From positions 655,095-719,094 of the forward strand of contig CBDANK010000002.1 of the NCBI GenBank assembly GCA_965197565.1: a stretch of 64,000 bases of DNA. The letters are read 5' to 3'. The position numbers and the translations under genes were made by a program. Under the pieces are notes generated by a model. That model searched no databases, had not been told where the DNA came from, and saw nothing but the letters and a program-made list of their open reading frames with translations. The first letter of the stretch is position 1, and each line of letters opens with the position of its first letter. This document shows positions 9,519 to 38,739 of the stretch, one piece after another. The stretch is from Dehalococcoidia bacterium (GTDB taxonomy: Bacteria > Chloroflexota > Dehalococcoidia > Lucifugimonadales > UBA3495).

Positions 9519-10340
9519 CTAGACCGCCGGTTTACGGAAGGGTTCCAGCAATAACCGCACATCCGTATCGATGTCGGCGTCCACGAAGAAGGGCTCAAAG
9601 TCGGCGGCCCTAGTCCAAATGCGGGAAGTCTGGATCAGGGCCGCCCGCTCAACGGAGGCCGGCCACCGCAGGATATAAACGTCGGTGTTGTCGGCGTGAG
9701 CAGCCCCGGTGGTGCCGTTGACGGCTCTGCTTACAGCCAGGTTGTTGCCGGAAATATTGGTGATGAGCATTTGCTCGTCGCCGATCAGTACGGTCTGGGC
9801 GATGGCGAATTGGGTTCCGTCGACGACGGCCACAGTGGTCTTGGCGGCGGTCATAGACGCGTCGTTCAGGTCGGCGCCGCTGTCCTCTTTGAACTGTCGA
9901 TAGCCCCAGACGCCGGCAACCTGAAAGCGCTGTTCGCCGGTGCTGAAAGCGTCCTTGGTCCCGTGGTGACGCACTCTGATGCTGGAGTATGGTTGGCCCC
10001 AATGCCGGGTTGGCTCAGCGTTGTAAGGTTCCAACCAATAATCGTTGGCTGCCCATGTATCGTCAAAGGTCTTATCGTCGCTGGCATCCTCTTTTAACGA
10101 CGTAAGAGAAATCAGGTCCGGAATGAGCAACCTGGAGGAGCCGCTGCCGTCGAACCGCAGGGTCTGAGTCCTGGGGTAGAAGTGGCGACTACAGTAGTGA
10201 TCGACCCAATCGGAAACAGCCAATAGCAACTGAAACATCTCGTCGTCGTCACCGGCCCCGGCGGCCGGGTCCTTGAGCAGGCTGTCGTCTTTTAGCTTGG
10301 TCAGGTCCCCGTAAAGGGACCGATAGGCTTCACGGGCCAT
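9519..10340 (-). CDS. phage head-tail connector-like protein (gp6-like N-terminal region plus extension)
   Basis: Last gene of the head-gene string. The N-terminal ~100 aa (LLLAVSDWVDHYCSRHFYPRT) resemble gp6-like connector/DNA-packaging proteins. The C-terminal 170 aa are unassigned. Confidence 0.45.
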   Translation of the reverse strand: MAREAYRSLYGDLTKLKDDSLLKDPAAGAGDDDEMFQLLLAVSDWVDHYCSRHFYPRTQTLRFDGSGSSRLLIPDLISLTSLKEDASDDKTFDDTWAANDYWLEPYNAEPTRHWGQPYSSIRVRHHGTKDAFSTGEQRFQVAGVWGYRQFKEDSGADLNDASMTAAKTTVAVVDGTQFAIAQTVLIGDEQMLITNISGNNLAVSRAVNGTTGAAHADNTDVYILRWPASVERAALIQTSRIWTRAADFEPFFVDADIDTDVRLLLEPFRKPAV

Positions 10341-10379
10341 TTACACCATCCTAGCCTTCCCCTCCGAAATGGGAAGGGA

Positions 10380-10802
10380 TTAGCTTTCTTCGATGTACTC
10401 GATAAGGATCTTGTGGGCAACAGTGGGCGCGGTCCCCCGCCACCGGCCGCTAAGCACTTCATCCCGTTTGCCCCTGGGGCCTTCCCGTCTCGGGAATACC
10501 CTCGTGGCGGCGCTGCCGGCATCGGGAACCGCCAGGATATCGATGGCCCGGTTGGGCGCGGTGATAATGTTGCCGGCGTCTCCGAAAAACAACTCCCAGA
10601 GGCGGCGGCCGTCCTTCGACTCTTGGAGCACCTTGGCCCTCACGAACCGAAGACGGCGTCCCGGAGACGGCGCCAGCAGCTCTTGACGGTCGACGGTGGC
10701 GCCAGCCTGGATAACTTTGGTCCGAAGGTTATAGGGACGGCGGCGCAGCCGGGCGCGGTAAGCGCGCCGGACCCGGTCGCCAAGCTTCAGGCTGGCCGGC
10801 AC
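10380..10802 (-). CDS. head-module protein of unknown function, tandem paralog 1
   Basis: 140 aa with a GTG start directly after the TAA of the upstream paralog. The C-terminal 100 aa are ~55-60% identical to 10803..11225 (DGRRLWEL.FG, EGPRG.RDEVLSGRW, AHKI..EY.EES). Confidence 0.6.
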   Translation of the reverse strand: MPASLKLGDRVRRAYRARLRRRPYNLRTKVIQAGATVDRQELLAPSPGRRLRFVRAKVLQESKDGRRLWELFFGDAGNIITAPNRAIDILAVPDAGSAATRVFPRREGPRGKRDEVLSGRWRGTAPTVAHKILIEYIEES

Positions 10803-11225
10803 TTACGACTCCTCGACGTATTCGACGATGATTTTATGTGCCGTCCTTGGCGCCGCGCCCAGCCACCGCCCGCTTAACACCTCGTCCCGGAGGCCCCGGG
10901 GCCCCTCGTCTTTGAGGAAAGTCCTAGTGCTGGTTTCGCCCAGGTTTGGCACGTCAAGGATGTCCACGGCCTTATCGGGGTTGACCGTAATGTCCGAGCC
11001 GGTGCCGAAGTACAACTCCCACAAGCGGCGGCCGTCGGACTGTTCTTGGATCAACCGCGTTTTGAGCAAGCGGACCCGCCTACCCTTGGACGGCGTTACC
11101 AGCGTTTCCCTGGCCCCGGAAGTATTGGAGTCATGGGCGTTGACCAGGGCCGCGTAGAGCCTGGGCTGTACGCTCGCTTTGTGATTCCTGGAGGCTCTAT
11201 CGGAAGCTCCACGGCTGCTGGTCAT
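10803..11225 (-). CDS. head-module protein of unknown function, tandem paralog 2
   Basis: 140 aa; see paralog 1. Its start overlaps the stop of the upstream 61-aa ORF by 4 nt. Confidence 0.6.
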   Translation of the reverse strand: MTSSRGASDRASRNHKASVQPRLYAALVNAHDSNTSGARETLVTPSKGRRVRLLKTRLIQEQSDGRRLWELYFGTGSDITVNPDKAVDILDVPNLGETSTRTFLKDEGPRGLRDEVLSGRWLGAAPRTAHKIIVEYVEES

Positions 11226-11407
11226 TTGAGCAGCCTGCCGACGCTGGCGCCGCCGAGGCCGGCGATGGCGGCCAGAGACACCGTGAGAGCGGTGCCGTTA
11301 ACTCCCTGGCTTAAGGCATAGCCTTCCAAGCCGGCAATGACGATTATGGTAAGGCCGGCGACGGCGGCGTATGCCCTGGTCATCCTGTATCCGCTGAATG
11401 AGGTCAT
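11222..11407 (-). CDS. small hydrophobic protein (2 predicted TM helices)
   Basis: 61-aa ORF that fits exactly between neighbours (4-nt overlap downstream). Gly/Ala-rich helices AAVAGLTIIVIAGL and SLAAIAGLGGASVG. Confidence 0.4.
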   Translation of the reverse strand: MTSFSGYRMTRAYAAVAGLTIIVIAGLEGYALSQGVNGTALTVSLAAIAGLGGASVGRLLK

Positions 11408-11426
11408 GCGGCGATCTCCTGGGCCG

Positions 11427-11699
11427 TTAAAGGCTCCCTATAAAGTCCACTTGGTCGTTGTTGTTGGCCGCGTCAGCCCAGAACTGGGAAGTGGAGACTC
11501 CATCGGCCAACTGGAGCTGGATGGATTCGCCGGGGATTAGAGTCATGCCGTCGGCGGACGACACGTCGTCACCACCCAAGTACAGGTCCCCGGTATTATC
11601 GGCGCGGGCCTTGAAGACGGCTGTCTTGAAGTTTCCCTTGTGAGCGGCTTGGACGCGGGTCCCGGCCGCAGCGATCTTTATGGTTGCAGAGATAATCAA
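11427..11699 (-). CDS. small head-module protein, function unknown
   Basis: TTG start at 11699 preceded by AAGGAG (minus strand ggagcgaAGGAGacttaggTTG); 90 aa. The 171-aa version in the ORF track overlaps the capsid gene and is rejected. Confidence 0.45.
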   Translation of the reverse strand: MIISATIKIAAAGTRVQAAHKGNFKTAVFKARADNTGDLYLGGDDVSSADGMTLIPGESIQLQLADGVSTSQFWADAANNNDQVDFIGSL

Positions 11700-11773
11700 C
11701 CTAAGTCTCCTTCGCTCCCCCTTGAGCAGGGTGAGTTTCTTCCGGGGTATTGCCCTTTTCGGTGCGCCGATTT

Positions 11774-13108
11774 CTAGGCCGCGCCGGTGATGTTGTATTG
11801 GAGCGCGGTGTGTGTGGCGGTAGACCGGGTCCCGCTGCGCCCTTGGAGAGCGATGCGGAAACTGACGACCATGATGTTCTGCCTCTTTTGCGGGTCCCTC
11901 ACCGTCTCTATGCTGAGCTCCCGCTTGTAGCCAACCCGCCACTGGCCGCGGTTGACGATGAGAAGACGCCCGGTGTTGGTCCCGTTGCCCGCATCGGTGA
12001 CCTTTCCGTCGATGTCGGCCAGCTTCATTTGCTCGGAGACGATAACGGGTATCCCTTCCACCGCGCCAAGCTGGCCGGTCAGGAGCGTTGCTTGGGGTCC
12101 GAACTTGTCCAGAGTCCTAAAGTTGCCGACGCCGAGGGAGCGGATGAAGGTGTTGACGTCGGTTATGTAAACTACTTCCGAAGGCCGGACGCCGTATTTC
12201 CCCAGCTTGGACCGGACCTCGTTGAACATATCGTCGGACACCGCCCCGGCGTGATTGTTGGCCTGGCTGGTGTTATCCACTAAGGGTAGGTGGAGAAGGC
12301 CGTCGAACCCCAGCAGCCATTGGCCTTTGCCCGCGTCGGTGGCGGCGATGGTGGCGCCGTCGGCGTTGATGTTGTTGGTGGCCGTGGTATCGCCGTTTAG
12401 AATTACGTCATCGATAACCTCTCGGGCATTGCGCAAGAGGCTCCTGCGCAGTTCCTCCATCATGGCGATGACCGCGTCTTCATCCAGGTCGTAGGACCAG
12501 AGAACCTCGGCCACCAGTTCGTAGGCCGTAAGGGTCTGGCGGGCGGTGCTGAGGGCGGTGCTTTTGGCGGCCACGTTCTCGGTGCCGGGATACCAGTTCA
12601 CGTCGCCCAATTGAAGCGGGATTTGAAACGGGTTGCTGGGCATCTGGACCGTGTTGAACAAAGGGGCCACAGCAGTCTCCAGGTTGACATCGTCCCACAG
12701 GGCCCTAGCCTCCTGTGTGCCCACTAGCTCGTCGCCGGTGCCGGCCGTCGTTGAGTCCATAGCGGCTTTGAGGTTAACCCGCCAGTCTTCCAACATCCTG
12801 GGGTTGAGACCGGACGGATCGCGGAGTTGGGCGGTTAGCAGGCTTCGAACGCAAGCCAGGTCCAGCAAGTCCAAGCCGGTGTATTTGCCGTATGCGACCC
12901 GAGGGCGTTCTCCGACTCCAAACCGGGCCAACATGGACTGTTTCTCGCCCTCCCGCCATAAGTCTTGAATTGTTCCCAGCTGGGCTGCTATTCGTCCTAT
13001 TTCATCCTTCAGCGGCGGGAGCTCGGCGTCCAGCCGCGATTGGTAATATTCCCGAATGCCGGCCATCTCCCGCTTGATTAGCTCCAGGTCCTGTGTTGCG
13101 AGTGTCAT
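11774..13108 (-). CDS. phage major capsid protein, HK97 family
   Basis: 444 aa. N-terminal coiled-coil delta-like region follows a protease gene. The C-terminal part has a typical HK97-fold sequence pattern (LIVNRGQWRVGYKRELSIE). Confidence 0.85.
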   Translation of the reverse strand: MTLATQDLELIKREMAGIREYYQSRLDAELPPLKDEIGRIAAQLGTIQDLWREGEKQSMLARFGVGERPRVAYGKYTGLDLLDLACVRSLLTAQLRDPSGLNPRMLEDWRVNLKAAMDSTTAGTGDELVGTQEARALWDDVNLETAVAPLFNTVQMPSNPFQIPLQLGDVNWYPGTENVAAKSTALSTARQTLTAYELVAEVLWSYDLDEDAVIAMMEELRRSLLRNAREVIDDVILNGDTTATNNINADGATIAATDAGKGQWLLGFDGLLHLPLVDNTSQANNHAGAVSDDMFNEVRSKLGKYGVRPSEVVYITDVNTFIRSLGVGNFRTLDKFGPQATLLTGQLGAVEGIPVIVSEQMKLADIDGKVTDAGNGTNTGRLLIVNRGQWRVGYKRELSIETVRDPQKRQNIMVVSFRIALQGRSGTRSTATHTALQYNITGAA

Positions 13109-13270
13109 TCGTTCCTCCTTGAAAGTGCTGCCGGGATAATTTCGCTGCTATGTTGGTCAGCCTCCAGCCAAACCTCCGCTCCTTGAGGAAGTCGCCCATC
13201 CCGGAGCAGAGGTTGGAAGGTATGCCGGGGGGGGGGGCGGGAACCCGTCTGTTGGTCAAGATCCGCGGCG

Positions 13271-14038
13271 TTAGGAGCGGGCCTCCTTTAGGATTGAGAG
13301 CAATTCGCTGAAATTGGACGGCTGAGGTTGAGTGTCGCCGCCAGTTTCCAGAGAAGCCAAGGTCTGGGCTATCTCCTCGCTCAGCTTGCTCAACTCGTCA
13401 ACTTGGGCCAGCAAAGCCGGCCAAGCCGCCTCGAGAGCCGGACCCGCCGGATTAGCGCGGCGAAGGTACTCTCCGACGCGGGGGGCTTCACTCAAGGCCC
13501 TGCGCAGGGCGTTCCGATTGGCTGGCACCGGGACCGCACTGGCCTCCAGCAATTCTTGTTCCAAGAACCGGATGCCCAGGACTGCTCCGGTCTTCTCACT
13601 CCTTCGCTCCTCGTAGCGCAGGGGTTTGAATCCCACCGACACCCCCCGTTGATAGCCGGCCCCATACAGCATCGCCACCTCCTGGGCGAAGGGAGTGGGA
13701 GCGAATTCGACCCGGGCCAGCAGCCGGTGGCCGTCCGTCCAAGTTTCCTGAGCGCGGCCGATTACCGGCCGGGCGTAGTCGTGGGCCCACAAGAACACCG
13801 GATTATTGCGGTAAGCTTCCAAGTTCCAACCGTCGGCCGCGATCACGTCGCCATGCCGGTCCACCTCATCGGTGGAAAACACGAAGGAAATCCTTTGCGC
13901 CGGACCGGGTTCCTCCGGGCTGGGTCCTGCCTCGTTCCATTTCCGCAGTAGCGGCGCGTCGCCCACTCCCCGGCGGTAAGCATCCAAAGCTTCCAGCAGT
14001 CTTTCTCTGTCCCAAGAAACACCCACTTGGTCTTCCAA
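13271..14038 (-). CDS. HK97-family phage prohead protease
   Basis: FVFSTDEVDRHGDVI...NNPVFLWAHDYARPVIGRA matches the S78/U35 prohead protease pattern. TTG start behind GGAGGTGAGGA. Confidence 0.85.
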   Translation of the reverse strand: MEDQVGVSWDRERLLEALDAYRRGVGDAPLLRKWNEAGPSPEEPGPAQRISFVFSTDEVDRHGDVIAADGWNLEAYRNNPVFLWAHDYARPVIGRAQETWTDGHRLLARVEFAPTPFAQEVAMLYGAGYQRGVSVGFKPLRYEERRSEKTGAVLGIRFLEQELLEASAVPVPANRNALRRALSEAPRVGEYLRRANPAGPALEAAWPALLAQVDELSKLSEEIAQTLASLETGGDTQPQPSNFSELLSILKEARS

Positions 14039-14343
14039 TTCCTCACCTCCGGGTTTGCTGAGACCGGCCTTGGGGTCAAAATCAAAGGGACCGGCCCATG
14101 TCGGGGTCGGTCCCTTCCGGACTCCGGCTTCTGCCGGGTCTCCAAGACTTATTTAGCTTCTGGATATTGAGGTTAGACAAATGTTTCCCAGGGTGTCAAT
14201 GGCGTTTTGACACAGGGCCTAAAATCGGACATATCGGCTAAAGGCAACATTGACCTTTAATTTCTCATGTGATAGCCTAAACTATCGCGAAACCAGCGAA
14301 CAATACTTGTTTGGCCAATCAGCGAGGAGCGTGACGATATAAC

Positions 14344-14781
14344 ATGGAAATTACGGCCCTAGCCATTGAGAGACTCAAGGAAGTCCTGGACGAACAAGGT
14401 GAAACCGACGGCTCCCTGCGCGTGATAGCGATGCCGGCCGAATCCGGCGGACTTCAATATATGCTGACCATGGAAAAGGAAAGTCAGCCCGACGACACCG
14501 TGATGAACGTAGGCGGCGTCAATTTCCTGATGGACTCCGACAGTGCGCCCTTCTTGGAAGAGGCCACCATAGACTACGTGGAAAACTTTGGAGGCCGTGT
14601 CGGCTTTGTAGTGAACAACCCCATGTTTGCCACCGCCGGCGGTTGTGGTTGCGGAGGCGGCGGTTGCGGCTGTGGGGGTGGGGGCGGCGGCTGTGGTTGC
14701 GGCAGCGGAGGCGGCGGTTGCGGCTGTGGGGGTGGGGGCGGCGGCTGTGGTTGCGGCAGCGGAGGTTGCGGCGGTCACTGA
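14344..14781 (+). CDS. IscA/HesB-like domain protein with C-terminal Gly/Cys repeat tail
   Basis: Residues 1-99 have the A-type carrier layout (ITALAIERLKEVL...LRVIA...GGLQYMLTM...VNFLMDSDSAPFLEEATIDYVE) but lack the first ligand Cys. The tail is GG-CGCG-GGG-CGCG-GGGGG-CGCG-S-GGGG-CGCG-GGGGG-CGCG-SGG-C-GGH (11 Cys). Confidence 0.8.
   Translation: MEITALAIERLKEVLDEQGETDGSLRVIAMPAESGGLQYMLTMEKESQPDDTVMNVGGVNFLMDSDSAPFLEEATIDYVENFGGRVGFVVNNPMFATAGGCGCGGGGCGCGGGGGGCGCGSGGGGCGCGGGGGGCGCGSGGCGGH
14653..14760 (+). repeat. perfect 54-bp tandem duplication inside the Gly/Cys tail coding region
   Basis: 14653..14706 and 14707..14760 are identical (ggaggcggcggttgcggctgtgggggtgggggcggcggctgtggttgcggcagc). 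Confidence 0.95.
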
Positions 14782-14816
14782 AGCCCTATCGCCTTAGGCC
14801 AACAACGACTATCCGT

Positions 14817-14849
14817 AAGGCCCCAGAACATTGGGGCCTTACTCTTTTC
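14817..14849 (+). terminator. rho-independent terminator candidate
   Basis: 9-bp stem aaggcccca / tggggcctt with a 6-nt loop, followed by actcttttcc, 36 nt after the stop codon. Confidence 0.55.
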
Positions 14850-15085
14850 CCGCCCCGGACCACGCCCCATGCCCCATCCTATCTGAGGAGCCCGCCCACC
14901 GGGTTTCCCTTGACTGCTGTTGGGCGTCACACCGATAATGCAACCCGGATGGCGTCGGGGCATTCCAACGGTAAAGAGCGTAATCCCGGTCCTGCGGTGT
15001 AGTCAAGAGGCGCAGTTGCGGCTTCGGCCCGCGGGCGGGCCGTGGCGCAAAAGGGCAGTCGCAAGCGGACCCACTGGGAGAGAAT

Positions 15086-16762: not shown

Positions 16763-16779
16763 GCGGTTCTTGCCGCAAA

Positions 16780-17019: not shown

Positions 17020-17037
17020 GAACCGAAGGAGGCTCCG

Positions 17038-18783: not shown

Positions 18784-18800
18784 AGCAGGCCGGCGGTTAA

Positions 18801-19283: not shown

Positions 19284-19285
19284 TC

Positions 19286-20919: not shown

Positions 20920-20927
20920 GCAGAGCA

Positions 20928-21274: not shown

Positions 21275-21658
21275 TCAGCGGCCCGGCGCAAGAAGAGCCT
21301 GCCCCGTTACCCGGCGGACGAACTCGGCCACTATGGCGCGGTCCTGAGCAATGGTGAATTCCTCCATAAAGTTGTGATAGAAGTTGGCATGAAACTTCTC
21401 GGCCACGGAAAACCCCGCCGCCAAGGATGGGTCGGAGCTTTCGTCGGCCAAAGCAGCGACGGCTCTACCCAAGGCGTAGTGTTGGCCGAACTCCCAGCCC
21501 CGCTCTTTGGCTGCGGCCATGACGGCATGAGATGCGGCCCCCCATAACTTTTCCGAGGCTTGCAGGACACCCCCGGCATCGAATTCCCGGCCAGATTCCT
21601 CCAGGAACTCCAAAGCGGTCCGGACATGTTCCTCGACAGACATCTCTCGCGTAGTCAT
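21275..21658 (-). CDS. PaREP1-like / HEPN-like helical protein
   Basis: 127 aa from ATG 21658; ALEFLEESGREFDAGGVLQASEKLWGAASHAVMAAAKERGW resembles the PaREP1 family. The 237-aa version has an Arg/Gly-rich N-terminus and is rejected. Confidence 0.45.
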   Translation of the reverse strand: MTTREMSVEEHVRTALEFLEESGREFDAGGVLQASEKLWGAASHAVMAAAKERGWEFGQHYALGRAVAALADESSDPSLAAGFSVAEKFHANFYHNFMEEFTIAQDRAIVAEFVRRVTGQALLAPGR

Positions 21659-21687
21659 AGCTGGCTCTCCAAGAACCCTGTGCGCAG

Positions 21688-23320: not shown

Positions 23321-23600
23321 GAGAGACCTTTGCATAACCCCCACCCCTGTCATTGTTATGAAAATAGCTTATTTTCATCGCCCTTGTATGGCCTCCGTAA
23401 GGCCATGTCATTCCGAACGCAGCGAAGCCCTTCGGCTGCTCTCAGGATAAGCTCCGTGAGGAATCTCAAACCTATGTCAGCAAGCACTGGGTCTGTAGCT
23501 GGACCGACGCGGCGACTCTGGCCCAACGTCTTAGATTCCTCCCTCCGGTCGGAATGACAGGGTTGAGCCGGGCGGAATGACAAATTGAGCGGCCAGGTCA
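23321..23600. repeat. MITE-like element family A, copy 2 (empty B site, nested C unit at 23349..23406)
   Basis: Collinear with A1. It contains the uninterrupted cgtcttagattcc site and carries a 58-bp two-hairpin unit before gtcattccgaacgc. The right terminus is degenerate. Confidence 0.6.
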
Positions 23601-29947: not shown

Positions 29948-29976
29948 GTCATTCTGAGCCGCAGGCGAAGAATCTA

Positions 29977-31386
29977 GTACTACAGTCGCAGATGTAGGGC
30001 AGGTAGAATAGGGGCATTCAACGAGTGGTGAGGTGAGGTGGTGATTGTTGTGAAAGATGAGGTGGCGGAGGTCGCCCGGTGGGCCGAGGGCATCGACCAA
30101 GTGCACCGGTGCATAGTGGGAAGATTCCGGCGACCGGAGCCGCGCCGCCGGGTTCTGGACTACCTGCGTGGTCTGCTCAGTGCAGTGGAGCGCAAGAACG
30201 GTTGGCAACTGGCGGAGCAAGCTGGCGACGCAACTCCCGACGGTGTGCGGCGCCTGTTGTACAACTACCGTTGGGACCCGGACCTGGTTCGCGATGACTT
30301 GAAAAACTACCTGATGGAGCATCTGGGCGACGCCGCTGGGGTTCTGGTGGTGGACGAGACCGGATTCCTCAAGAAAGGGGAGAAGTCGGTTGGGGTGCAG
30401 CGGCAGTACAGCGGGACGGCGGGACGGATCGAGAACTGTCAAATTGGCGTTTTCCTGGCCTATGCCAGTGCCAAGGGCAGAACCCTGCTGGACCGGGAAC
30501 TGTACCTGCCCCAGGTATGGGCGGAGGACTGGGAGCGGCGGCGGGAGGCCGGGGTGCCGGAGAGTGTCGGCTTTCGGACCAAGCCGCAACTGGCCCAGCT
30601 AATGCTGGAGCGGGCGCTGGCATCAGGAGTCCCCTTCGGCTGGGTTGCCGGAGCTGAGGTTTATGGCAAGGACCGCAACCTGCGGCTGTGGCTGGAGCGA
30701 GAGGGAATTCCCCAGGTGCTGGCCATCAGGAGCAACGAGAAGCTGTGGGCTTTGACCGACAAGGGTCCCCGTCAGGTGCGGGCTGACCGGCTAACGTCAC
30801 AGGTTGACGAGTTGGCTTGGACCAGGTGCAGCGCCGGCAACGGGGCCAAGGGTCCCCGGGTCTAGACTGGGCCTTGGTGGAGGTCCGGCCCCTGAGAGAG
30901 CCGGGGAAGGGCTACTGGCTGCTGGCCCGGCGCAGCATTGCCAAGCCCGGGGAGCTGGCTTACTACCTATGCTTCGGCCCGGCGGGAACGGCCTTGGAGG
31001 AACTGGTGAGGGTGGCTGGGACCCGGTGGGCCATCTGAGGAGTGTTTCGAGGAGGCCAAGGGACAGGTGGGACTGGACCAGTACGAGGTGCGGCGGTGGG
31101 ACGGCTGGTACCGGCACATCACCTTGGCGATGCTGGCGCAGGCGTATCTGTCCGTAATCAAGCATCAGGCCATGGAAGGGGTAGAAAAGGGGGCTATTAC
31201 GGTCCGGATGACGCACTGATTCCCATGACGGTCCCGGAGGTGCGCCGGCTGCTGACCCGCCTTGTATGGACCGAGAACCAACTGCCTGATTTCATCCTGT
31301 CCTGGTCCTGGTGGAGACGGCGCCGCCAAGCCAGAGCCCGGCAATGCCACTACAAACGCCGCTTGTCAAATCTGCGACTGTAGTAT
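29977..31386 (+). mobile_element. IS701-family insertion sequence, decayed
   Basis: 17-bp TIR gtactacagtcgcagat / atctgcgactgtagtat (16/17), with TA on both sides (29975..29976, 31387..31388). The transposase reading frame is broken three times. Confidence 0.75.
30038..31383 (+). pseudogene. IS701-family DDE transposase, three frameshifts
   Basis: Conserved IS701 blocks (VDETGFLKKGEKSVGVQRQYSGTAGRIENCQIGVFLAY; GPRV*(Y)DWA; [38 protein letters not shown]; IPMTVPEVRRLL...SWSWWRRRRQARARQCHYKRR) lie in three different frames. Breaks are at ~30863, ~31036 and ~31170-31200. Confidence 0.8.
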
Positions 31387-31388
31387 TA

Positions 31389-31534
31389 GGGCCTGTTGAC
31401 ACTACCAATTTCCTATATAGGGATTGGTAGCCCAGCCTCCCACAAAGGGCGCCTCTACAACCGGCGTGCTACGGGATTTCGTAGGGGCAACCCTTGTGGT
31501 TGCCCGGTCCTCAGCTATTAGTGTCAACAGGCCC
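31389..31534. mobile_element. 146-bp MITE family B, copy 2
   Basis: Perfect 16-bp TIR gggcctgttgacacta / tagtgtcaacaggccc, with TA on both sides. ~95% identical by eye to 7405..7550 and to the reverse complement of 43869..44014. Confidence 0.75.
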
Positions 31535-31768
31535 TAAAGCCCTTCAGCAAGAACCACAGTCCGAGTATCTAAGAAAGGAAATGCAGTCAAGGACTTTAGA
31601 CCCCTCGCGGAGTTTATCTTGAGTCTAGCCGAAAGGCTCGGGGTGACAATCGAAAGCCCCTGCTTATCCCAACCACAGCGCTTTCCTTGTGACCGGCTGC
31701 CTAACCGGTTATGATAAAGATCGTCGGCTCGTTGGAGCTTCCCTCCAGCCAAAGAGCGGAGAAATTCA

Positions 31769-33262
31769 TTGCCGCGAAAGTATGACGTAGTGGTGGTAGG
31801 CGCCGGAAATGCGGCCCTTAGCGCCGCCCTAGCCGCTAAAGAAATCTGCGGCTCTGTGCTGGTGGTGGAGAAAGCGCCTGAATACTTTCGGGGCGGCAAC
31901 ACCTACTTCACCGGCGGCATTATCCGCTTCGCTTTTGACGGCATCGAGGACATCAAGACCCTGATTCCGGATATGTCCGCAACGGAAGAAGCCTCTGTCG
32001 ATGTCGGCAGCTACACCCAGGACCAATTTTACGGCGACCTGATGCGGGTTACCCAAGGCTTATCGGACCCTGGGTTAGCCCAAACACTGGTCAGTCAGTC
32101 GCTTCCCACGATGCAATGGCTCAGGAGCAAGGGCGTCCGCTTTGTCCTCTCCTACGGGAGGCAGGCTTTCAAAGACGGCGGTAAGTACCGTTTCTGGGGC
32201 GGGCTGCTGGTGGAAGCGGTGGGAGCCGGAAAGGGGCTGTCCGACCAGCAGTTTCAAGCGGCGGATCAAGATGGAATCGAAGTCCGCTACTCGACCCAAG
32301 GAATGCGCCTGCTCCAAGACGATAACGGATCTATAAACGGTCTGCGAGTGTTGGGTCCCCAAGGGTTTGAGGACATCCCGGCTGGCTCGGTAGTCCTGGC
32401 CAGCGGCGGCTTCGAGGCCAATGCTGAAATGCGCTGCCGCTACCTGGGGCCCGGTTGGGAGCTGGTTAAGGTCAGGGGGATTCCTTACAACACCGGCGAC
32501 GGCATTCGCATGGCCTTGGAGGTGGGGGCTCAGGCCCACGGCCACTGGAGCGGCTGCCACGCCGTTGCTTGGGACATGAACGCTCCCCCCTTCGGCGACC
32601 GGACCATCACCGAGTTGTTCCAAAAACATTCCTATCCATTGGGCATAATCGTGAATCTGGACGGCAATCGGTTCTTGGATGAAGGGGCCGACTTCCGAAA
32701 TTACACCTACGTGACCTACGGGCGGGCTTTGCTAACCCAACCCCAAGGGCTTGGTTTCCAGATTTTCGACGAAAAAGTCAGGACCATGCTGCGGGACGAA
32801 TACCGCATCGACCAAGTGACCATGGCCCAAGCGGACACTATCGAAGAGCTGGCCGCCCGCCTGGATATAAACCCCGAGGGTCTCAGCCGAACGGCCAAAG
32901 AATACAATGCCGCTGTGCGAAGCGACGTCCCCTATAATCCGGCAGTGAAGGACGGTCTGGGCGCCCTGGGCATCGATCCGCCCAAGAGCAATTGGGCCCT
33001 GCCCATCGACAAGCCGCCTTACCTGGGCTACGCCGTCACCTGCGGAATCACCTTTACTTTCGGCGGGATCAAGATAAACAACCGTGGTCAAGTGGTGACC
33101 AACAGCCAGGAGCCTATCGCCGGTCTGTACGCCGCCGGCGAGATGGTGGGCGGTCTGTTTTACCACAACTATCCCGGCGGGTCCGGACTATCCGCCGGCA
33201 TGGTCTTTGGCCGCTTGGCCGGCAGCAGCGCCGCCTATGACGCCGCGGCTTTACAAGGCTGA
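31769..33262 (+). CDS. FAD-dependent oxidoreductase (TcuA / fumarate-reductase flavoprotein-like)
   Basis: YDVVVVGAGNAALSAALAAKE dinucleotide fold, C-terminal AAGEMVGG. TTG start. Confidence 0.8.
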   Translation: MPRKYDVVVVGAGNAALSAALAAKEICGSVLVVEKAPEYFRGGNTYFTGGIIRFAFDGIEDIKTLIPDMSATEEASVDVGSYTQDQFYGDLMRVTQGLSDPGLAQTLVSQSLPTMQWLRSKGVRFVLSYGRQAFKDGGKYRFWGGLLVEAVGAGKGLSDQQFQAADQDGIEVRYSTQGMRLLQDDNGSINGLRVLGPQGFEDIPAGSVVLASGGFEANAEMRCRYLGPGWELVKVRGIPYNTGDGIRMALEVGAQAHGHWSGCHAVAWDMNAPPFGDRTITELFQKHSYPLGIIVNLDGNRFLDEGADFRNYTYVTYGRALLTQPQGLGFQIFDEKVRTMLRDEYRIDQVTMAQADTIEELAARLDINPEGLSRTAKEYNAAVRSDVPYNPAVKDGLGALGIDPPKSNWALPIDKPPYLGYAVTCGITFTFGGIKINNRGQVVTNSQEPIAGLYAAGEMVGGLFYHNYPGGSGLSAGMVFGRLAGSSAAYDAAALQG

Positions 33263-33270
33263 CCCGAGCT

Positions 33271-34596
33271 TTGGAGCCGCCCACTAAAACCGCCGGCCCG
33301 GGCATTTATTACGGCTGGTACATCGTCGCCACCTGCTTATTCATTGCTTTCGCTACTGTGGGAGCCCGCAATGCCATGGGAATCTTCGTTATTCCCATGA
33401 GCGAGGAGTTCGGTTGGAGCCGGGGGACCATCTCCTTGGCCGGTGCTCTCGGGTTCCTAGTGAACGGTCTTGCCCAGCCCTTTTACGGCAGATGGTTCGA
33501 CCAGCGGGGCTCCAGCGTAATCGTTAGCAACCTGGTCATCGCGGCGGTTGCGACGATGCTCCTCAGCCTTACCTTTCACTTTCTGTTTCTTATTTTCCTG
33601 TTCGGGATAGTCAGTTCGATGGCGCTGAGCGGCGCGTCACTGAACAACACATCGGCCTTGCTGGCTAGGTGGTTCCGCCGCAAGCGGGCCACGGTCATCG
33701 GCCTAAATTCCGCCGGCGTGTCCATAGGCTCGTTGGTGCTGGTGCCCTTCGGAATTTACTTGATGCAAGCCACCAACTGGAGGATCACTTGGGCCGCATT
33801 GGGTCTAATTATCTTTACTGCGGTCCCTTTGGCCGTAATGTTCCTCCAAGACAGCCCGGCCAAGCGGGGGCTCCTTCCCGATGGAGACTCTGATCGCCCC
33901 GGGGAAGCGGGAGGAAACGCGGCCCGTCAGGCATTGCCGGCCCTGGATACGGAGAGGTGGAGCCAGTCCTACCGGTCTCTGCCAATATGGCAGGTGTCAA
34001 TGGGCTTATTCATTTGCGGCGCCACCACCTTCATCCTAAGCTTCCACTTCGTCGCTTTCGCTCAGGAAGATCGGGGTATCTCGCCGGGAATGGCTGGCGC
34101 CATGTTCGCTGTCATGGGAGGCATGAACGCCTTGGGCAGCATCGGCGCCGGGATGCTCTCCGACCGGTTTAGCCGGAAAAACCTGCTGGCCTTGGTGTAC
34201 TTCGCCAGAGGCACTGCTTACATGATATTGTTGGTCCCGCCTTTGTTGGGAATCCCCATTCTTTCCGGCGATACCGGGGTCTGGCTCTTCGCTTTTATCG
34301 CCGGTATTTCCTGGATCGCCACCAACCCCTTGAGCGTGTCCCTTACTGCGGATGTTTACGGCCTGCGGGCCTTGGGCACCATCACCGGCGTTACCTACGT
34401 TTTTCACCAAGTCGGAGGGGCCACTTCGGCCCTGCTGGCAGGCTACCTCAACGACTGGACCGGCAGCTACACCATACCCTTCTTGGCCGCCGGTTCAATG
34501 CTGTTCATTGCCTCCTTCACCGCTTTCACCATCAACGAGCGCAAATATTCCGTGCGCTACCAATCCCAGCCCGCCGCTGCTGCCGCCGGAAACTGA
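33271..34596 (+). CDS. MFS transporter
   Basis: 441 aa with ~12 hydrophobic helices and a central loop with a charged segment. Confidence 0.8.
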   Translation: MEPPTKTAGPGIYYGWYIVATCLFIAFATVGARNAMGIFVIPMSEEFGWSRGTISLAGALGFLVNGLAQPFYGRWFDQRGSSVIVSNLVIAAVATMLLSLTFHFLFLIFLFGIVSSMALSGASLNNTSALLARWFRRKRATVIGLNSAGVSIGSLVLVPFGIYLMQATNWRITWAALGLIIFTAVPLAVMFLQDSPAKRGLLPDGDSDRPGEAGGNAARQALPALDTERWSQSYRSLPIWQVSMGLFICGATTFILSFHFVAFAQEDRGISPGMAGAMFAVMGGMNALGSIGAGMLSDRFSRKNLLALVYFARGTAYMILLVPPLLGIPILSGDTGVWLFAFIAGISWIATNPLSVSLTADVYGLRALGTITGVTYVFHQVGGATSALLAGYLNDWTGSYTIPFLAAGSMLFIASFTAFTINERKYSVRYQSQPAAAAAGN

Positions 34597-34599
34597 CCC

Positions 34600-34842
34600 G
34601 TGAGCCCGTGGGCGGTCTTGTGGTCAGTAGCCCGGCACCACAGCGAGCCGGCCGACCCGGACTTGTTGGAATGGATCAAGGGCTTCCTTGACCATTTATT
34701 CCACTTGGGGCCGTGGACCATTGTGACGGTGCTGGCCCTCCTCATCCTGTTGATGCCTATTGCTATAATCACCGTCTATCTGGTGCAACAACGCCGCCGG
34801 TCGGGGGCAACCGCGACAAGGCCAAAACGGAAAGATGTCTGA
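34600..34842 (+). CDS. small membrane protein
   Basis: 80 aa with one strong TM helix (WTIVTVLALLILLMPIAIITVYLV), 3 nt after the MFS gene. GTG start. Confidence 0.4.
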   Translation: MSPWAVLWSVARHHSEPADPDLLEWIKGFLDHLFHLGPWTIVTVLALLILLMPIAIITVYLVQQRRRSGATATRPKRKDV

Positions 34843-35006
34843 GCTTCGGAACTTGCCCCTATGCCCAAGCGGGAGTAAAATTTGGTAGTTCTATCTATTC
34901 TCCAGCCTTGGGGCATGGGCCATAGCAGCAGCGGGTAGCCTTCGATGGGTCTTAACCCAATGCTGCGAGGCTAAATCTCACGAGGAAGGACACAGCGAGA
35001 GCAAAG

Positions 35007-35192
35007 ATGTTTGATAAACAGTCATTGGACAGTCTTTTCGATGAGCTACGGGACCAGTATGAGTTGGAGCCCGAGTGGGAGGACATCCAGAGGGATGCCC
35101 ATCTAGGCGTGGCCCGGTCCGATGCGGGAGTTTCTCTGGGCGACATCGATAGCAGGGTCATTACCGTTATCGAGAAACACCGACCAGATTAG
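35007..35192 (+). CDS. small acidic hypothetical protein
   Basis: 61-aa ORF behind GAGGAAGGA. No family recognised. Confidence 0.3.
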   Translation: MFDKQSLDSLFDELRDQYELEPEWEDIQRDAHLGVARSDAGVSLGDIDSRVITVIEKHRPD

Positions 35193-35240
35193 CTTTCCGG
35201 CCAAGCCCTTTCCCTAAACCTTTACCTCCTCCCGCTTTCT

Positions 35241-35451
35241 AAAGACCTTTGCGTAACTGGTCGTTCAACTTGTCATTCCGACCGGAGGGAGGAATCTAAG
35301 GCGTTGGGCCAGAGTCGTCGCGTCGGTCCAGCTACAGACCTAGTGCTTGCTGACATAGGTTTGAGATTCCTCACGGAGTTTATCCTGAGCGCAGCCGAAG
35401 GGCTTCGCTGCGTTCGGAATGACAGGGGTGGGGGGTTATGCAAAGGTCTCT
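35241..35451. repeat. MITE-like element family A, copy 3 (reverse orientation, no nested elements)
   Basis: Termini aagacctttgcgtaac / gttatgcaaaggtctct, flanked by tttcta on both sides. This is the most compact copy (~211 bp). Confidence 0.65.
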
Positions 35452-35678
35452 TTTCTACGGGACTGTTTACTGCTGCCTCGGGGCGGTGCATAGAAACTAT
35501 CCCATAGACAATCGCCGCTGAGAATCAAGGCAAGGCGGGCTGTGCCAACGGCCCTAACCCTGTCTGGTGACGTGTGACCGCTTGACAGCCCCGATCACCG
35601 AAGCATAGCTTGGATGCAACAGGGACGACCCGACCCGCTGTTGGGCCGTCCCTTCACTATTTCAGGAGGTGATGGGGT

Positions 35679-35882
35679 TTGCGTTGCCGACGCTGCTTTT
35701 CCACGCGGTTGCTCAAGTTGGACAAGAAGTTGTCCAGAGATAATGATGTGTTCCGCTGCCAGGAATGCGGTTTCTTGTTTAGTCCCGCTGCTACCGACGC
35801 GATTGATTCAACCGGCCCCGGCGCAAAGGGTGAACGTTCCCGGACGGTCGCGGTCCGTTCCGACCACCAAGACCGGGATTAA
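35679..35882 (+). CDS. small zinc-ribbon protein in the position of a terminase small subunit
   Basis: TTG start 9 nt after AGGAGG. CRRC...18 aa...CQEC, then a basic/acidic tail. Ends 6 nt before terL. Confidence 0.45.
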   Translation: MRCRRCFSTRLLKLDKKLSRDNDVFRCQECGFLFSPAATDAIDSTGPGAKGERSRTVAVRSDHQDRD

Positions 35883-35888
35883 CCAGCG

Positions 35889-37241
35889 ATGCCCGAATCC
35901 TCGGATGCCGAGTACATTCCCCCTCTCGTTTTCGCCAGCGATGTGCTGGGGGTCAAGCTGTGGGATAAACAGCAAGAGGTATTGGCCGCATTGCCGGACC
36001 ACCGGCGGGTCGCGGTCAAATCCGGGAACGGCTTGGGCAAAGGCTTCTCCGCCGCAGTGGCCGTTCTATGGTTCCTCCACTGCCACAACCCGGCCATAGT
36101 GCTTAGTACCGCTCCCACCTTCCGCCAAGTCCGGCACATCCTTTGGCGGCAAATCCGCCGGCTCTACCGGCCCGCCAAAGAAAAACTGGACGGCAAGATG
36201 CTGGACACCCGCTGGGAGTTGGCCGAGGACCGCTATGCGATGGGCCTATCCGCCGACTCGGCGGACGAATTCCAGGGGTTTCACAGCCCCAACATGTTTA
36301 TCGTCGTGGACGAAGCCGAGGGTGTGAGCGATGAGATATACGAAGCCATTGACGCTGTAATGACCTCCGCCGAAACTCGCTTGTTGCTTATCGGCAACCC
36401 CACCACCACCTCCGGGGCCTTCCGCCGGGCATTCTACGAGGAGCGGCGGCTCTACCACACCATAACCATCTCGGCCTTGGACAGCCCCAATGTGCAAGCG
36501 GGCAAGGTAAAGATCCACGGCCTTACCACCCCCCGGTGGGTCCAAGAAAGAAAAGACGCTTGGGGCGAAGAAAACCCCATTTACCGGGCGCGGGTCTTGG
36601 GAGAGTTTCCCGACCAAGCCGAAGATACTCTGATCAAGCTCTCCGACGTGGAGACGGCCGCACAACGGGCGTCCACCGGCAACGGCCCGAATGGCCCCGG
36701 CAAGGCTTATGACCAAGTGGTGTTGGCCGTGGACGTAGCTCGCTTCGGTTCCGACCGCAGCGTTATCCTGCGCCGCCGCGGAAACATCGTAGAAGATATT
36801 CAGATTTTCCACCAAATGGACACCATGCAGTTGGTGGGTTGGGTTAACGCAGCAATCAGGGAGTGCAGCCCGGCCGACGTATGCGTGGATGAGATCGGAG
36901 TTGGCGCGGGGGTTGTGGACCGCTTGCGTGAGGAGGGTCATCGCGTCAGGGGCATCAACGTCGCCAGAAGCGCTCATCAGAGCGGCCTGTTCACCAATCT
37001 CCGGGCCGAAGGCTATTGGCGGTTGCGCGACCTCTTTTCCACAGGGGAGATCAGCATTCCCCGCGACAACCAATTGATGGGCGAACTGGCCGCTATGCGT
37101 TACAGCTACGATAGCCAGGGCAGGGTCCAGATAGAGAGCAAAGACTCCATGCGGAAACGGGGCCTTCCCTCGCCGGACAAGGCTGACGCGTTGATGTTGG
37201 CTTTCTTGGAGTCGCCCGGTAGGACCAGATTATGGACCTGA
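35889..37241 (+). CDS. phage terminase large subunit
   Basis: Walker A-like KSGNGLGKG, Walker B MFIVVDEAEG, and a C-terminal RNaseH-like nuclease part (VLAVDVARFGSD...VCVDEIGVG...). Confidence 0.85.
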   Translation: MPESSDAEYIPPLVFASDVLGVKLWDKQQEVLAALPDHRRVAVKSGNGLGKGFSAAVAVLWFLHCHNPAIVLSTAPTFRQVRHILWRQIRRLYRPAKEKLDGKMLDTRWELAEDRYAMGLSADSADEFQGFHSPNMFIVVDEAEGVSDEIYEAIDAVMTSAETRLLLIGNPTTTSGAFRRAFYEERRLYHTITISALDSPNVQAGKVKIHGLTTPRWVQERKDAWGEENPIYRARVLGEFPDQAEDTLIKLSDVETAAQRASTGNGPNGPGKAYDQVVLAVDVARFGSDRSVILRRRGNIVEDIQIFHQMDTMQLVGWVNAAIRECSPADVCVDEIGVGAGVVDRLREEGHRVRGINVARSAHQSGLFTNLRAEGYWRLRDLFSTGEISIPRDNQLMGELAAMRYSYDSQGRVQIESKDSMRKRGLPSPDKADALMLAFLESPGRTRLWT

Positions 37242-37374
37242 GCCGCCGCCCGGACTCCAAGCTCCACTCTCCTACTTTTTGCGCCAGCCAAGAGACCGGA
37301 CAGTAAAGTCACTGCCCGGCGGGCAGTGACGCCGGTTAACGAGGATTGATTGAGGATTAAACGAGGATTAAACA

Positions 37375-38739
37375 ATGAGAGTTAAACCTGTATTCTCCCA
37401 AGGGCTTCGGCCATCGCTGCTCAAAGCCTTGGAGACGTTGAAAACACCGCCGACCGCCATGTTTGACTCGGCCAAGTCTCTGAAGGACCGGCTGAGCCTC
37501 GCCCGGGCTGGACCTGCGGCGGTCCAACAACGGGCCAACCGGGCCTCCGGTGTGGACGTGGACTGGTTGCAAGAGGCCGCCGGCCCCGGCGCTGGCTGGA
37601 GCAGGACCGAATACGGTGAATACTACGCCGCATCGGTTTCGGTTTACGCGGCAATCAAGCTCCGGTCGGAAGCCCTCAGCCGCCCCAAGCTCCTCATCCG
37701 CCGCCGGGCGGCCGATGGAACTCTGCTCCCCGTGGACCCGGACCATCCGGCCCAACTGTTGCTGGACCGGGTAAACCCTTGGTATACCCGGGGAGATTTG
37801 TGGCGGGCCACCGAGACTTATCTCAACTTATGGGGCTCGTCATTCTGGGCCCTGGAAAGGGATGAAAAGGGACAAAGGGAGATCTGGCCGCTCCGGCCGG
37901 ACCGGGTTAGCGTGTTGCCCGACCGCCGGCAGTACATCCGGGGGTTTGTCTACCAGGGGCGCAACGGTCCGGTGGCCTACACCCCCGACGAGGTATTGTG
38001 GATGCGCTATTTCAATCCCTTGGAGGAGTACGCCGGTCTGTCTCCCATAGCTCCGGTGCGCCTTGCCGCCGACATGGGCAAGGACGGCCTGCGGTTTAAC
38101 CGCAACTTCTTCCGCAATTCGGCCCAGCCCGATTTCGTCCTGCTGACAAATGAGAGCATGACCGATAGTGAGGTTCAAGACTTTTACAACCGTTGGGAGG
38201 ACCGTTACCGGGGGCCGGCCAAGGCCCACCGTCCGGCCATCGCCAGCTTCGTCCGTGACATCAAGACCCTGGGCTTCAGCCAGCGGGAGATGGAGTTCAT
38301 CCAAGGGTTGCGCTGGAGCTTGGAGGAGGTGAGCCGGACCTATGGCGTGCCCAAGCCCTTGCTGTCCGACCTGGAACGAGCCACTTTCTCCAATGTCAAC
38401 GCCGCCGAGCGCATGTTTTGGCGCAACACCATACTCCCCGAGTTGCAGTTTTTTGAAGAGCGGTTGAACCGTATGCTCTTGCCGCGCTTGGGCTACCCGG
38501 ACTTGGTGGTCGAGTTCGATGTAAGTCTCATCGAGGCCCTGCGCGAGGATGAAAACAGCCGGGTGAGCCGGGAAGCCCAACTGTTGGACCGGGGCGTCCT
38601 AACCATCAACGAGGTGCGCCGCACCCGCAACCTGCCGGACGTGCCTTGGGGCGACACTTGGGCCAAAGCGCCTGGGTCTGCGCCAAAGCCTCCGGCGGCC
38701 AGCGCGCCGGCTTCCAACCGGCGAACGGCCAAGAACTGA
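37375..38739 (+). CDS. phage portal protein, HK97 family
   Basis: 454 aa; typical HK97-type portal blocks (LNLWGSSFWALERDEKGQ..IWPLRPDRV, FNPLEEYAGLSPI, NFFRNSAQPDFVL). Confidence 0.85.
   Translation: MRVKPVFSQGLRPSLLKALETLKTPPTAMFDSAKSLKDRLSLARAGPAAVQQRANRASGVDVDWLQEAAGPGAGWSRTEYGEYYAASVSVYAAIKLRSEALSRPKLLIRRRAADGTLLPVDPDHPAQLLLDRVNPWYTRGDLWRATETYLNLWGSSFWALERDEKGQREIWPLRPDRVSVLPDRRQYIRGFVYQGRNGPVAYTPDEVLWMRYFNPLEEYAGLSPIAPVRLAADMGKDGLRFNRNFFRNSAQPDFVLLTNESMTDSEVQDFYNRWEDRYRGPAKAHRPAIASFVRDIKTLGFSQREMEFIQGLRWSLEEVSRTYGVPKPLLSDLERATFSNVNAAERMFWRNTILPELQFFEERLNRMLLPRLGYPDLVVEFDVSLIEALREDENSRVSREAQLLDRGVLTINEVRRTRNLPDVPWGDTWAKAPGSAPKPPAASAPASNRRTAKN

Follow-up and report, generated by a model that had tools for sequence, protein, structure and literature searches.

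Why should a set of bacteriophage head genes lie on a bacterial chromosome in two halves that face opposite ways, with host genes between them and no tail genes beside them? The question is raised by a 64,000-nucleotide stretch of the genome of a SAR202-type Dehalococcoidia bacterium (assembly GCA_965197565.1, contig CBDANK010000002.1, positions 655,095 to 719,094 of the forward strand; hereafter the window, meaning the whole stretch), in which HK97-type genes for head assembly and DNA packaging form two opposed half-modules 21.6 kb apart. A first-pass annotation of the window had placed two explanations side by side: a very recently disrupted prophage, or a domesticated capsid and packaging system akin to a gene transfer agent (GTA) or a capsid-forming satellite. 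Our comparison with related genomes makes it probable, though well short of certain, that the locus is not a decaying prophage but a head-assembly and DNA-packaging system of phage origin that has long been immobilised in Dehalococcoidia, was split by one or more old inversions and probably still has its two operons coupled. To our knowledge, domesticated phage particles such as GTAs and tailocins occur in few bacterial lineages, and almost all of them are tailed. Dehalococcoidia are ecologically important and mostly uncultured, and count deep-ocean SAR202 and major symbionts of sponges among their members.

The TerL-portal operon (35679-38739, plus strand) and the capsid operon (9519-14038, minus strand) hold the following genes, with the matches that identify them given in brackets.

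35679..35882, plus strand: Zn67, a 67-aa Zn-ribbon protein of the form CxxC-X20-CxxC, 6 nt 5' of TerL (weak Zn-ribbon matches)
35889..37241, plus strand: TerL, the large terminase (ATPase and nuclease), 450 aa (phrog_2, 2.8e-40)
37375..38739, plus strand: portal protein, 454 aa (PF04860, 4e-67; TIGR01537, 2e-41; phrog_2662, 9e-78)
13271..14038, minus strand: prohead (maturation) serine protease, 255 aa, which opens the capsid operon (Peptidase_S78, 4.2e-8; phrog_80, 1.6e-21; TIGR01543)
11774..13108, minus strand: HK97-fold major capsid protein (MCP), 444 aa (PF05065, 4e-7; TIGR01554, 1e-12; phrog_617)
11427..11699, minus strand: p90, a 90-aa protein with a TTG start and a good ribosome-binding site (homologues of 51-80% identity in the related loci L010, L012, L018, L020 and L026)
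11222..11407, minus strand: tm61, a 61-aa protein with two hydrophobic stretches, predicted membrane helices (homologues of 55-84% identity at the same position in about 30 loci)
10803..11225, minus strand: p140a, 140 aa, a paralog of p140b (invariant residues and a conserved EYxEES C-terminus in the alignment)
10380..10802, minus strand: p140b, 140 aa, 47% identical to p140a (paralog alignment)
9519..10340, minus strand: head-tail adaptor, gp6-like, 273 aa, which closes the capsid operon (phrog_442, 9e-13)

The head genes listed by the first-pass annotation are all present and intact at these positions, and their families were assigned with Pfam, PHROGs and NCBIfam. The protease scores 33.9 bits against Peptidase_S78 (cut-off 21), the match of the MCP to PF05065 exceeds the gathering score, and the portal scores 143 bits against TIGR01537 (cut-off 112). 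No Pfam terminase model matches TerL above threshold; its C-terminal nuclease segment is similar to the nuclease domain of Sf6 gp2, and its Walker A-like motif (GNGLGKG), Walker B motif (VVDEAEG) and nuclease acidic motifs are invariant across nine species. An N-terminal coiled-coil stretch of the MCP is probably the delta (scaffolding) domain. The AlphaFold model of the adaptor has a mean predicted local distance difference test (pLDDT) score of 74, with a core of about 90, and Foldseek matches it to Gp6-domain proteins, podovirus adaptors and head-to-tail interface chains. The description of the two halves as one canonical HK97 head module holds for the MCP, portal, protease, TerL and adaptor; a small terminase (TerS) is not recognisable in the module, unless Zn67 acts as one. 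The TerS position is occupied by Zn67, which has no family match in Pfam, PHROG or NCBIfam and is a candidate small terminase or regulator.

The 21.6 kb between the half-modules are host chromosome, as had been described, and hold genes for a HesB/IscA-like protein, a thiamine diphosphate-dependent (ThDP) enzyme, GGT, Lon-N, QueF and the remaining que operon, PrpD, ADH, a DDE transposase, a FAD oxidoreductase and an MFS protein. Family searches found no tail, lysis, integrase or replication genes among the larger open reading frames (ORFs) of the window, in line with the first-pass annotation. No holin family match was found in the window or in the related loci inspected, and tm61 stays unclassified; a holin-like or assembly role for it is speculation.

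The module is widespread. Relatives of the MCP number 1527 in the protein collection, with the best 120 at 76-100% identity and many on multi-Mb contigs; the exact sequence of the window MCP is not on record as a called gene. Homologues 73-92% identical to it occur in more than 100 clusters, and the portal follows a like pattern (67-86% identity, more than 100 clusters). When one genome per species was scanned, the MCP was found encoded in 217 species-level genomes, and the best 80 of these 217 loci (L002-L081) all belong to Dehalococcoidia, SAR202 or Chloroflexota metagenome-assembled genomes, many of them complete chromosomes, at 73-88% capsid identity. The MCP gene is intact in 78 of these 80 species loci, and the protease is present in 79 related loci. 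Tail genes were found in none of about 150 related loci, for which neighbourhoods of about 20 kb, not whole chromosomes, were inspected. The module resembles the HK97-type head module of Caudoviricetes in its TerL, portal, S78 protease, HK97-fold capsid with N-terminal coiled coil and gp6-like adaptor, and in the canonical order of its contiguous relatives. It differs in being detached from tail, lysis, replication and lysogeny genes, in its split into opposed operons and in being a conserved chromosomal feature.

Is the split itself shared? Sixty-nine species loci have at least 7 kb of sequence upstream of the capsid operon. In 37 of them a divergent HesB/IscA-like gene adjoins the protease as it does in the window, often with the ThDP gene beyond it and an ECH gene beyond the adaptor, and in 24 of the 69 other genes lie upstream of the capsid operon. 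TerL and portal are absent within 7-10 kb upstream of the protease in 61 of the 69, including the 37 with the HesB flank. Both halves could be placed on one chromosome in three other species: the distance between them is 31 kb in OY763929.1 and 16 kb in OZ219860.1, both arranged divergently as in the window, and 1.64 Mb in OZ244707.1. The split is thus a conserved arrangement, and since it recurs on independently assembled complete chromosomes of other species, both mis-assembly and recent disruption are excluded as its origin.

This observation bears directly on the possibility, raised earlier, that adjacent halves were separated by mis-joins at repeats. MITE-like repeats (resembling miniature inverted-repeat transposable elements) do occur close to the portal-side junction (38820-38935 and 39175-39300) and, upstream of Zn67, at 35243-35434. 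Against an assembly artefact, an independent metagenome contig (L001) is 99.8% identical to the window over 8.5 kb (30900-39437) and reproduces the context of TerL and portal, the protease-HesB junction is found in 37 species, and the same split stands in the complete chromosomes just described. We therefore give this explanation next to no weight.

In the other eight of the 69 species (L062, L066, L068-L071, L076 and L077), Zn67, TerL, portal, a cargo segment, protease and MCP, and so on to the adaptor, lie on one strand. The cargo is a variable 1-3.5 kb between portal and protease and includes, for example, a DNA methyltransferase (L066), an FMN dehydrogenase (L062) or a DUF6941 protein (L076). 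This cargo gap is where the window module is broken, and the model of a single inversion that restores the canonical order, proposed in the first-pass annotation, therefore fits these relatives. From this comparison the contiguous order is plausibly ancestral, with the break in the cargo gap.

The history of the two halves can also be read from their divergence. Pairwise Nei-Gojobori estimates between the window and its relatives give ratios of nonsynonymous to synonymous divergence (dN/dS) of 0.07-0.10 for the MCP, 0.07-0.13 for the adaptor, 0.06-0.19 for the p140 paralogs, about 0.1-0.2 for tm61, 0.13-0.15 for the protease, 0.10-0.17 for TerL and about 0.15-0.17 for the portal, against 0.07-0.10 for HesB, 0.05-0.08 for ThDP, 0.13 for ECH and 0.16 for MFS among the flanking genes; with dS at 0.9-1.8, near saturation, these ratios are approximate. 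The capsid, portal and TerL, for which a selection check had been proposed, fall at 0.07-0.17. Purifying selection holds both half-modules intact, with a strength equal to that on the housekeeping genes nearby. Within the same genome pairs, dS is alike for module and flank genes, and the MCP distance matrix correlates with those of HesB (Mantel r 0.69), ThDP (0.83) and ECH (0.72), to the same degree as host genes correlate with each other (0.65). Since the split, both half-modules have been inherited mostly together with the host chromosome. Across the 12 genomes in which both halves were located, MCP distances correlate with portal distances at r 0.965 and with TerL distances at r 0.943; joined or split, the halves thus share a single origin and history, and the idea that they differ in phylogenetic origin falls away. 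The GC content, third-position GC content (GC3) and relative synonymous codon usage of the head genes lie within the host range in both halves, whereas two ORFs of a small island near a tRNA-Val gene lie outside it.

These results leave very little room for the recently disrupted, decaying prophage remnant that had been one of the two proposals. Such a remnant would account for the missing tail, lysis, lysogeny and replication genes, for the rearranged module and for the relatives in which the adaptor block is lost or TerL is split. It is at odds with intact genes under strong purifying selection across dozens of species at dS of about 1 or more, with a split and flank common to many species and with a host-like composition, and a single clonal lineage is excluded by capsid protein divergence of 12-27%. 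Relaxed selection, pseudogenes, strain-specific presence and atypical composition, the signs of a defective prophage, were not what we found.

If the halves have stayed one system, what could make them act together? Directly 5' of each operon lies a stem-loop that the first-pass annotation had not recorded and that is a conserved part of the module; a small gene also precedes the TerL-portal operon.

14087..14114, minus strand: leader stem-loop GGGACCGACCC-loop-GGGCCGGTCCC, then a T-rich run, 48 nt 5' of the protease start codon (46.7 bits with the covariance model R1)
35622..35652, plus strand: second copy of the leader stem-loop, GGGACGACCC-loop-GGGCCGTCCC, then a T-rich run, 26 nt 5' of the Zn67 start (36.3 bits with R1)
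35007..35192, plus strand: p61, a 61-aa acidic protein encoded 5' of the TerL-portal operon on the same strand, which travels with the operon and whose membership of the system is uncertain

Both copies have the form GGGAC-NNN-CCC / loop / GGG-NNN-GTCCC, and they alone score high when R1 is run over the window, the next best site reaching 9.6 bits. Orthologs of the protease-side hairpin are found in about 75 of the 80 species loci, and the Zn67-side position is filled in L001, L068-L071, L076, L082 and L083, with a hairpin upstream of TerL in L084. In 1.6 Mb of related loci, R1 sites number about 75 before the protease, about nine before Zn67 or TerL and two elsewhere; of these two, one follows an ABC substrate-binding gene and is an ordinary terminator. 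When 38 sites are aligned, the outer five base pairs prove invariant and the three in the middle covary (AGA/TCT, GCA/(C or T)GC, TGA/TCA, GGA/TCC, GTA/TAC and CGA/TCG); 91% of cells are paired, and double-sided changes number 45 against 11.7 in shuffles. The covariation score is 0.272 against 0.094 for shuffled alignments, no shuffle out of 500 reaches the observed value, and slid controls collapse. Rfam has no family for these hairpins, and no R1 site was found in circular or phage-like relatives.

The protease-side hairpin sits between divergent genes and therefore terminates no upstream gene. The gap of 26-48 nt between hairpin and start codon leaves no room for a promoter, and transcripts must therefore cross the hairpin. 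Position and conservation suggest that the hairpins are conserved leader terminators with a regulatory meaning, and the shared leader before both operons suggests, by analogy, joint control through regulated read-through. In Caulobacter and Bartonella, the expression of GTA loci is coupled by antitermination across leader terminators (PMC11150451; bioRxiv 10.1101/2024.11.20.624540). Zn67 and p61 are candidate antitermination regulators. Recombination between the two leader hairpins was considered as the cause of the split and rejected, as it would flip the intervening host segment only and would not separate portal from protease.

The operons once formed a single co-linear module, as the eight contiguous species still show, and were parted by one or more inversions that broke it in the cargo gap separating portal from protease. 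The working of such an immobilised, host-kept head module might be pictured as follows. Both operons would still be read through the same kind of leader hairpin, so that a common read-through or antitermination signal would probably govern both halves and let physically separate loci work as one unit. Once switched on, a portal-bearing HK97 procapsid would assemble and be matured by the protease, TerL would fill it with DNA, and a ring of the adaptor would close it. A tail-less, DNA-filled capsid would result, since none of the genes for tails, lysis, integration or replication is found here or in about 150 related loci. Such a capsid could either take tails from a co-resident or infecting phage, as satellites do, or serve GTA-like DNA transfer for the host.

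A possible source for such a system is found among viral-database relatives. Among the IMG/VR database contigs L085-L120, many short ones are of the same chromosomal family, including fragments with the HesB and ThDP host flank, and these entries are probably not viruses. More distant IMG/VR relatives share 62-65% identity with the window in the capsid, 58-72% in the adaptor and 47-52% in the portal, and have the order adaptor, portal, helix-turn-helix TerS-like protein, Terminase_6-type TerL, about 5 kb of other genes, protease, capsid, a gene like that for the 284-aa protein x284 of some contiguous relatives, the p140 pair and the adaptor again. Two of them appear circular: L111 (IMGVR_UViG_3300018082_000006; 12,943 bp, GC 0.60) has a 123-bp terminal direct repeat with 100% identity, which fits a circle of about 12.8 kb, and L114 (IMGVR_UViG_3300044762_000024; 14,913 bp, GC 0.67) has a 126-bp terminal repeat, which implies a circle of about 14.8 kb. 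L114 encodes a tyrosine integrase, and no tail genes were found in either. Both are candidate capsid-forming satellites of a GC-rich host. Contigs that resemble real phages reach only 38-48% capsid identity to the window. A small mobile element of the satellite-like, capsid-forming kind is the most likely ancestor of the chromosomal module, since the same head genes, again without tail genes, are found in circular relatives of about 13-15 kb, of which one has an integrase.

Capsid-forming satellites have genes for TerS, TerL, portal, protease, capsid and connectors, and for neither tails nor holins (PMC10085698); the capsids that they release, tail-less and filled with DNA, are joined later to tails of foreign origin (bioRxiv 10.1101/2025.02.11.637232). 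The window module resembles these phage-inducible chromosomal islands that form capsids (cf-PICIs) in having its own TerL, portal, protease, HK97 capsid and head-tail adaptor with no tail or lysis genes, a match made by function class and not with SatelliteFinder profiles, and its small circular relatives of about 13-15 kb, one with an integrase, fit the same pattern. This likeness raises the alternative that the locus is an active satellite, integrated site-specifically beside HesB, in which case the shared flank would be due not to vertical descent but to an attachment site that is conserved. In gene content the locus corresponds to the morphogenesis half of such satellites (PMC10085698), one genome carries two copies, loci of different architecture are interleaved in the capsid tree, and the tRNA-Val gene lies 600 bp downstream of the portal. 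Several observations make this explanation unlikely, though less so than those dismissed above. Neither half, in the window or in related chromosomal loci, was found to be accompanied by an integrase, an AlpA-type or other regulator or a primase-replicase, the only integrase being that of L114. Host DNA of 16 kb to 1.6 Mb separates the halves, which makes excision of the split element as a unit implausible. The dS of the module equals that of its flanks and the distance matrices correlate, its codon usage is fully host-like, and the leader hairpins are confined to the chromosomal lineage, with none in circular elements. In addition, the near-identical strain represented by L001 departs from the window only past the tRNA gene, not at the module. 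The window element further differs from cf-PICIs in having no recognisable TerS or second head-tail connector, in being split by host genes at a host position conserved in many species where it co-diverges with its flanks, and in its Chloroflexota host, cf-PICIs being described, in the available part of the literature, from Proteobacteria and Firmicutes.

Comparison with GTAs (the RcGTA type of Alphaproteobacteria, CcGTA and BaGTA; PMC11841831, PMC11150451, bioRxiv 10.1101/2024.11.20.624540) gives a similarly mixed picture. Like them, the module consists of structural and packaging genes of phage origin, has no replication or integration functions, is fixed in the chromosome at more than one locus, is under purifying selection and is inherited with the host. 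In CcGTA and BaGTA expression is tied by antitermination across leader terminators; in the window a possible parallel is the covarying leader hairpin before both operons, the shape of which is generic. Unlike the window and the roughly 150 related loci, known GTAs encode complete tailed particles and lysis functions. Particles and gene transfer are putative for the Dehalococcoidia module. Its proteins are unrelated to those of known GTAs beyond the common HK97 toolkit, it belongs to a different lineage, Dehalococcoidia, and some species have lost parts of it. The element thus belongs neither with the cf-PICIs, as it has no integrase, regulator or replicase and is split, nor with the GTAs, as it has no tail or lysis genes, and it may resemble both in the way it works. 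As far as sequence comparison reaches, the second of the two original proposals, a domesticated capsid and packaging system of GTA-like or satellite-like kind, is supported by the long retention, the co-divergence with flanks, the congruence of the halves, the missing integrase, replication and tail genes and the circular tail-less relatives.

What a host would gain from such a system can be pictured in more than one way. A domesticated satellite might serve as an anti-phage system, in which the late-gene antiterminator of an infecting phage activates the operons and the capsids compete for phage tails or DNA and lower the burst. The terminator-type leaders before both operons would need an antiterminator that is not encoded nearby, long-term retention shows some benefit to the host, and several satellite families interfere with helper phages (PMC10085698). 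For a characterised cf-PICI, EcCIEDL933, the effect on helper fitness is negligible (PMC10085698), and no candidate helper phage is known for the module. This explanation, which is a variant of an immobilised head module that differs solely in the proposed benefit, seems to us doubtful, if a little less so than an active satellite. Alternatively, the capsid shell could have been re-used without DNA, as in encapsulins, with portal and terminase as leftovers. HK97-fold shells have indeed been domesticated as encapsulins (PMC8346489), and the module has no tail genes. However, portal and TerL are conserved like the capsid gene and co-evolve with it, the ATPase and nuclease motifs of TerL are invariant, the adaptor is also conserved and no cargo enzyme is linked; an empty shell is as improbable, in our estimate, as a decaying prophage.

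Several findings weigh against a stable, host-kept module of the kind we favour. In addition to the near-saturated dS, which makes the selection estimates approximate, 11 of 72 species loci have no adaptor in the 4.5-10 kb downstream. The closest relatives (L002, L004 and L006) are without the block from p90 to the adaptor, the ABC transporter and ECH, and have an FtsJ/TlyA gene directly after the MCP; no adaptor from these three contigs is among the top matches. This loss may be partial decay in a sublineage or may reflect assembly errors. In OZ219860.1, TerL lies in two ORFs of 350 aa and 93 aa (L083, 8626-9971), which may be a frameshift and partial decay or a long-read assembly error. One contig, CBDFLW010000004.1, has two copies of the capsid operon (L052 and L078) with capsids 92% identical to each other and each nearer to copies in other genomes (98% and 95%). 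The contiguous L066 nests among HesB-adjacent loci, its capsid being 94.5% identical to that of the HesB-adjacent L064. Together with L094, in which the block from p90 to the adaptor is inverted relative to the MCP gene, these cases show that rearrangement, partial loss and occasional duplication or transfer occur. The leader hairpin also has the common shape of an intrinsic terminator: its bare pattern matches at least 120 metagenome contigs, mostly of unrelated bacteria, and one of the 120 matches listed belongs to the module, so that the pattern alone is not diagnostic. Finally, tail, lysis or regulator genes could be encoded elsewhere in these genomes.

With these points in mind, we still favour an old, immobilised head-assembly and packaging system, and a broader proposal can be attached to it. 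The module could be a class-wide, host-maintained system of Dehalococcoidia, including the abundant marine SAR202 group and sponge symbionts, that builds tail-less DNA-filled capsids from dispersed operons co-activated by read-through of a shared leader terminator, and would then be a new kind of gene-transfer or particle system, with a capsid-forming satellite, not a whole prophage, as its source. We hold this broader proposal tentatively and lean, on balance, away from it. In the literature we found no description of a GTA or of a cluster of capsid, portal and terminase genes in Chloroflexi, SAR202 or Dehalococcoidia. What stands out is a head-and-packaging-only gene set that is kept functional-looking in more than 200 species, even after its break into separate loci. 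If particles are made, they would offer a route of DNA exchange, or a means of interfering with phages, in organisms without a known mechanism of genetic exchange, and would be the first capsid-forming satellite to have become a permanent organ of its host. The paired leader hairpins give a testable handle on the co-regulation of separated loci. In addition, module loci are called viral in IMG/VR, which inflates virus-host links for Chloroflexota.

The remaining products of the capsid operon and its counterparts in relatives add some detail. p90 has a weak DUF7172 match; at its position some relatives have a stretch that matches part of a longer gene, x284, which itself has no match to the p90 of the window. 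Of the 72 species loci for which the downstream sequence is long enough, 44 keep p140a and p140b side by side. Profile searches, including those against PDB sequences, gave no Pfam, PHROG, NCBIfam or PDB match for the p140 proteins, and an AlphaFold model of p140a with the two window paralogs alone as input is unusable (pLDDT 47). A combined query of p140a and adaptor returned adaptors alone among its best 120 matches. Residues 150-270 of the adaptor match tail-fibre PHROGs, a profile search against PDB sequences gave weak matches to tail-protein domains, and its structural model contains an inserted beta domain of a type also seen in tail-fibre proteins.

The block after the capsid gene differs in relatives of the L062 and L076 type, where it encodes proteins of 150 aa, 284 aa and 116 aa, an adaptor, a 144-aa protein and a membrane protein of about 540-570 aa. 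The 144-aa gene is connector- or terminator-like (phrog_17840), the C-terminal part of the 284-aa protein (x284) is homologous to the p140 proteins, and no tail tube, tape measure or baseplate genes were found in these blocks. Two families of large unannotated membrane proteins flank the contiguous modules and could belong to the system. The first is divergent and lies upstream of Zn67 (L062 460-2139, L076 3482-4552, L077 3574-5235). The second directly follows the last connector gene (L062 14624-16240, L068 13316-14920, L076 14465-16168, L077 15418-17034), and a homologue also lies near the TerL-portal half in L084. Zn67 itself is found directly 5' of TerL in L062, L066, L068-L071, L076, L077, L082 and L083. 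p61, which has no family match in the profile libraries, shows 92% identity in L082 and L083, against 74% for TerL there; it lies 0.5-4.5 kb upstream of Zn67 in L068-L071, L076 and L082-L084 and adjoins the protease in L035.

The HesB/IscA-like Fe-S assembly protein next to the protease (14344-14781) has a long C-terminal Cys-Gly repeat tail, GCGCGGGG..., encoded by a tandem repeat (14634-14789), and its relatives match the first two thirds of the protein alone. A PaREP1-like protein is encoded at 21275-21988, and the DDE_5 transposase gene (30038-30865), inside the 21.6-kb segment, coincides with a local spike in GC and GC skew. Dispersed direct and inverted repeats of 50-170 nt in several families, intergenic and apparently MITE-like, occur at 7267-7606, 23403-23559, 31383-31608, 35243-35434, 43772-44064, 57163-57308 and 59324-59468 and in the pairs 5386-5501/38820-38935 and 22680-22782/39175-39300, with copies just 5' of the Zn67 gene and just 3' of the portal.

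The tRNA-Val gene downstream of the portal (39337-39413) was considered as the original integration site and dropped: the contiguous relatives have no tRNA nearby, and the repeat linked to the tRNA bounds a separate island of 3.3 kb. In this repeat, the 3' end of the tRNA and the bases that follow it (39396-39449) recur 3.3 kb further on (42685-42738) over 54 nt at 85% identity. The repeat brackets two unannotated ORFs of 146 aa and 509 aa, with lower GC3, and an amidohydrolase gene. L001 departs from the window 24 nt past the tRNA-Val gene, where it encodes a two-component system, a leucine-rich repeat protein and a 1206-aa repeat protein.

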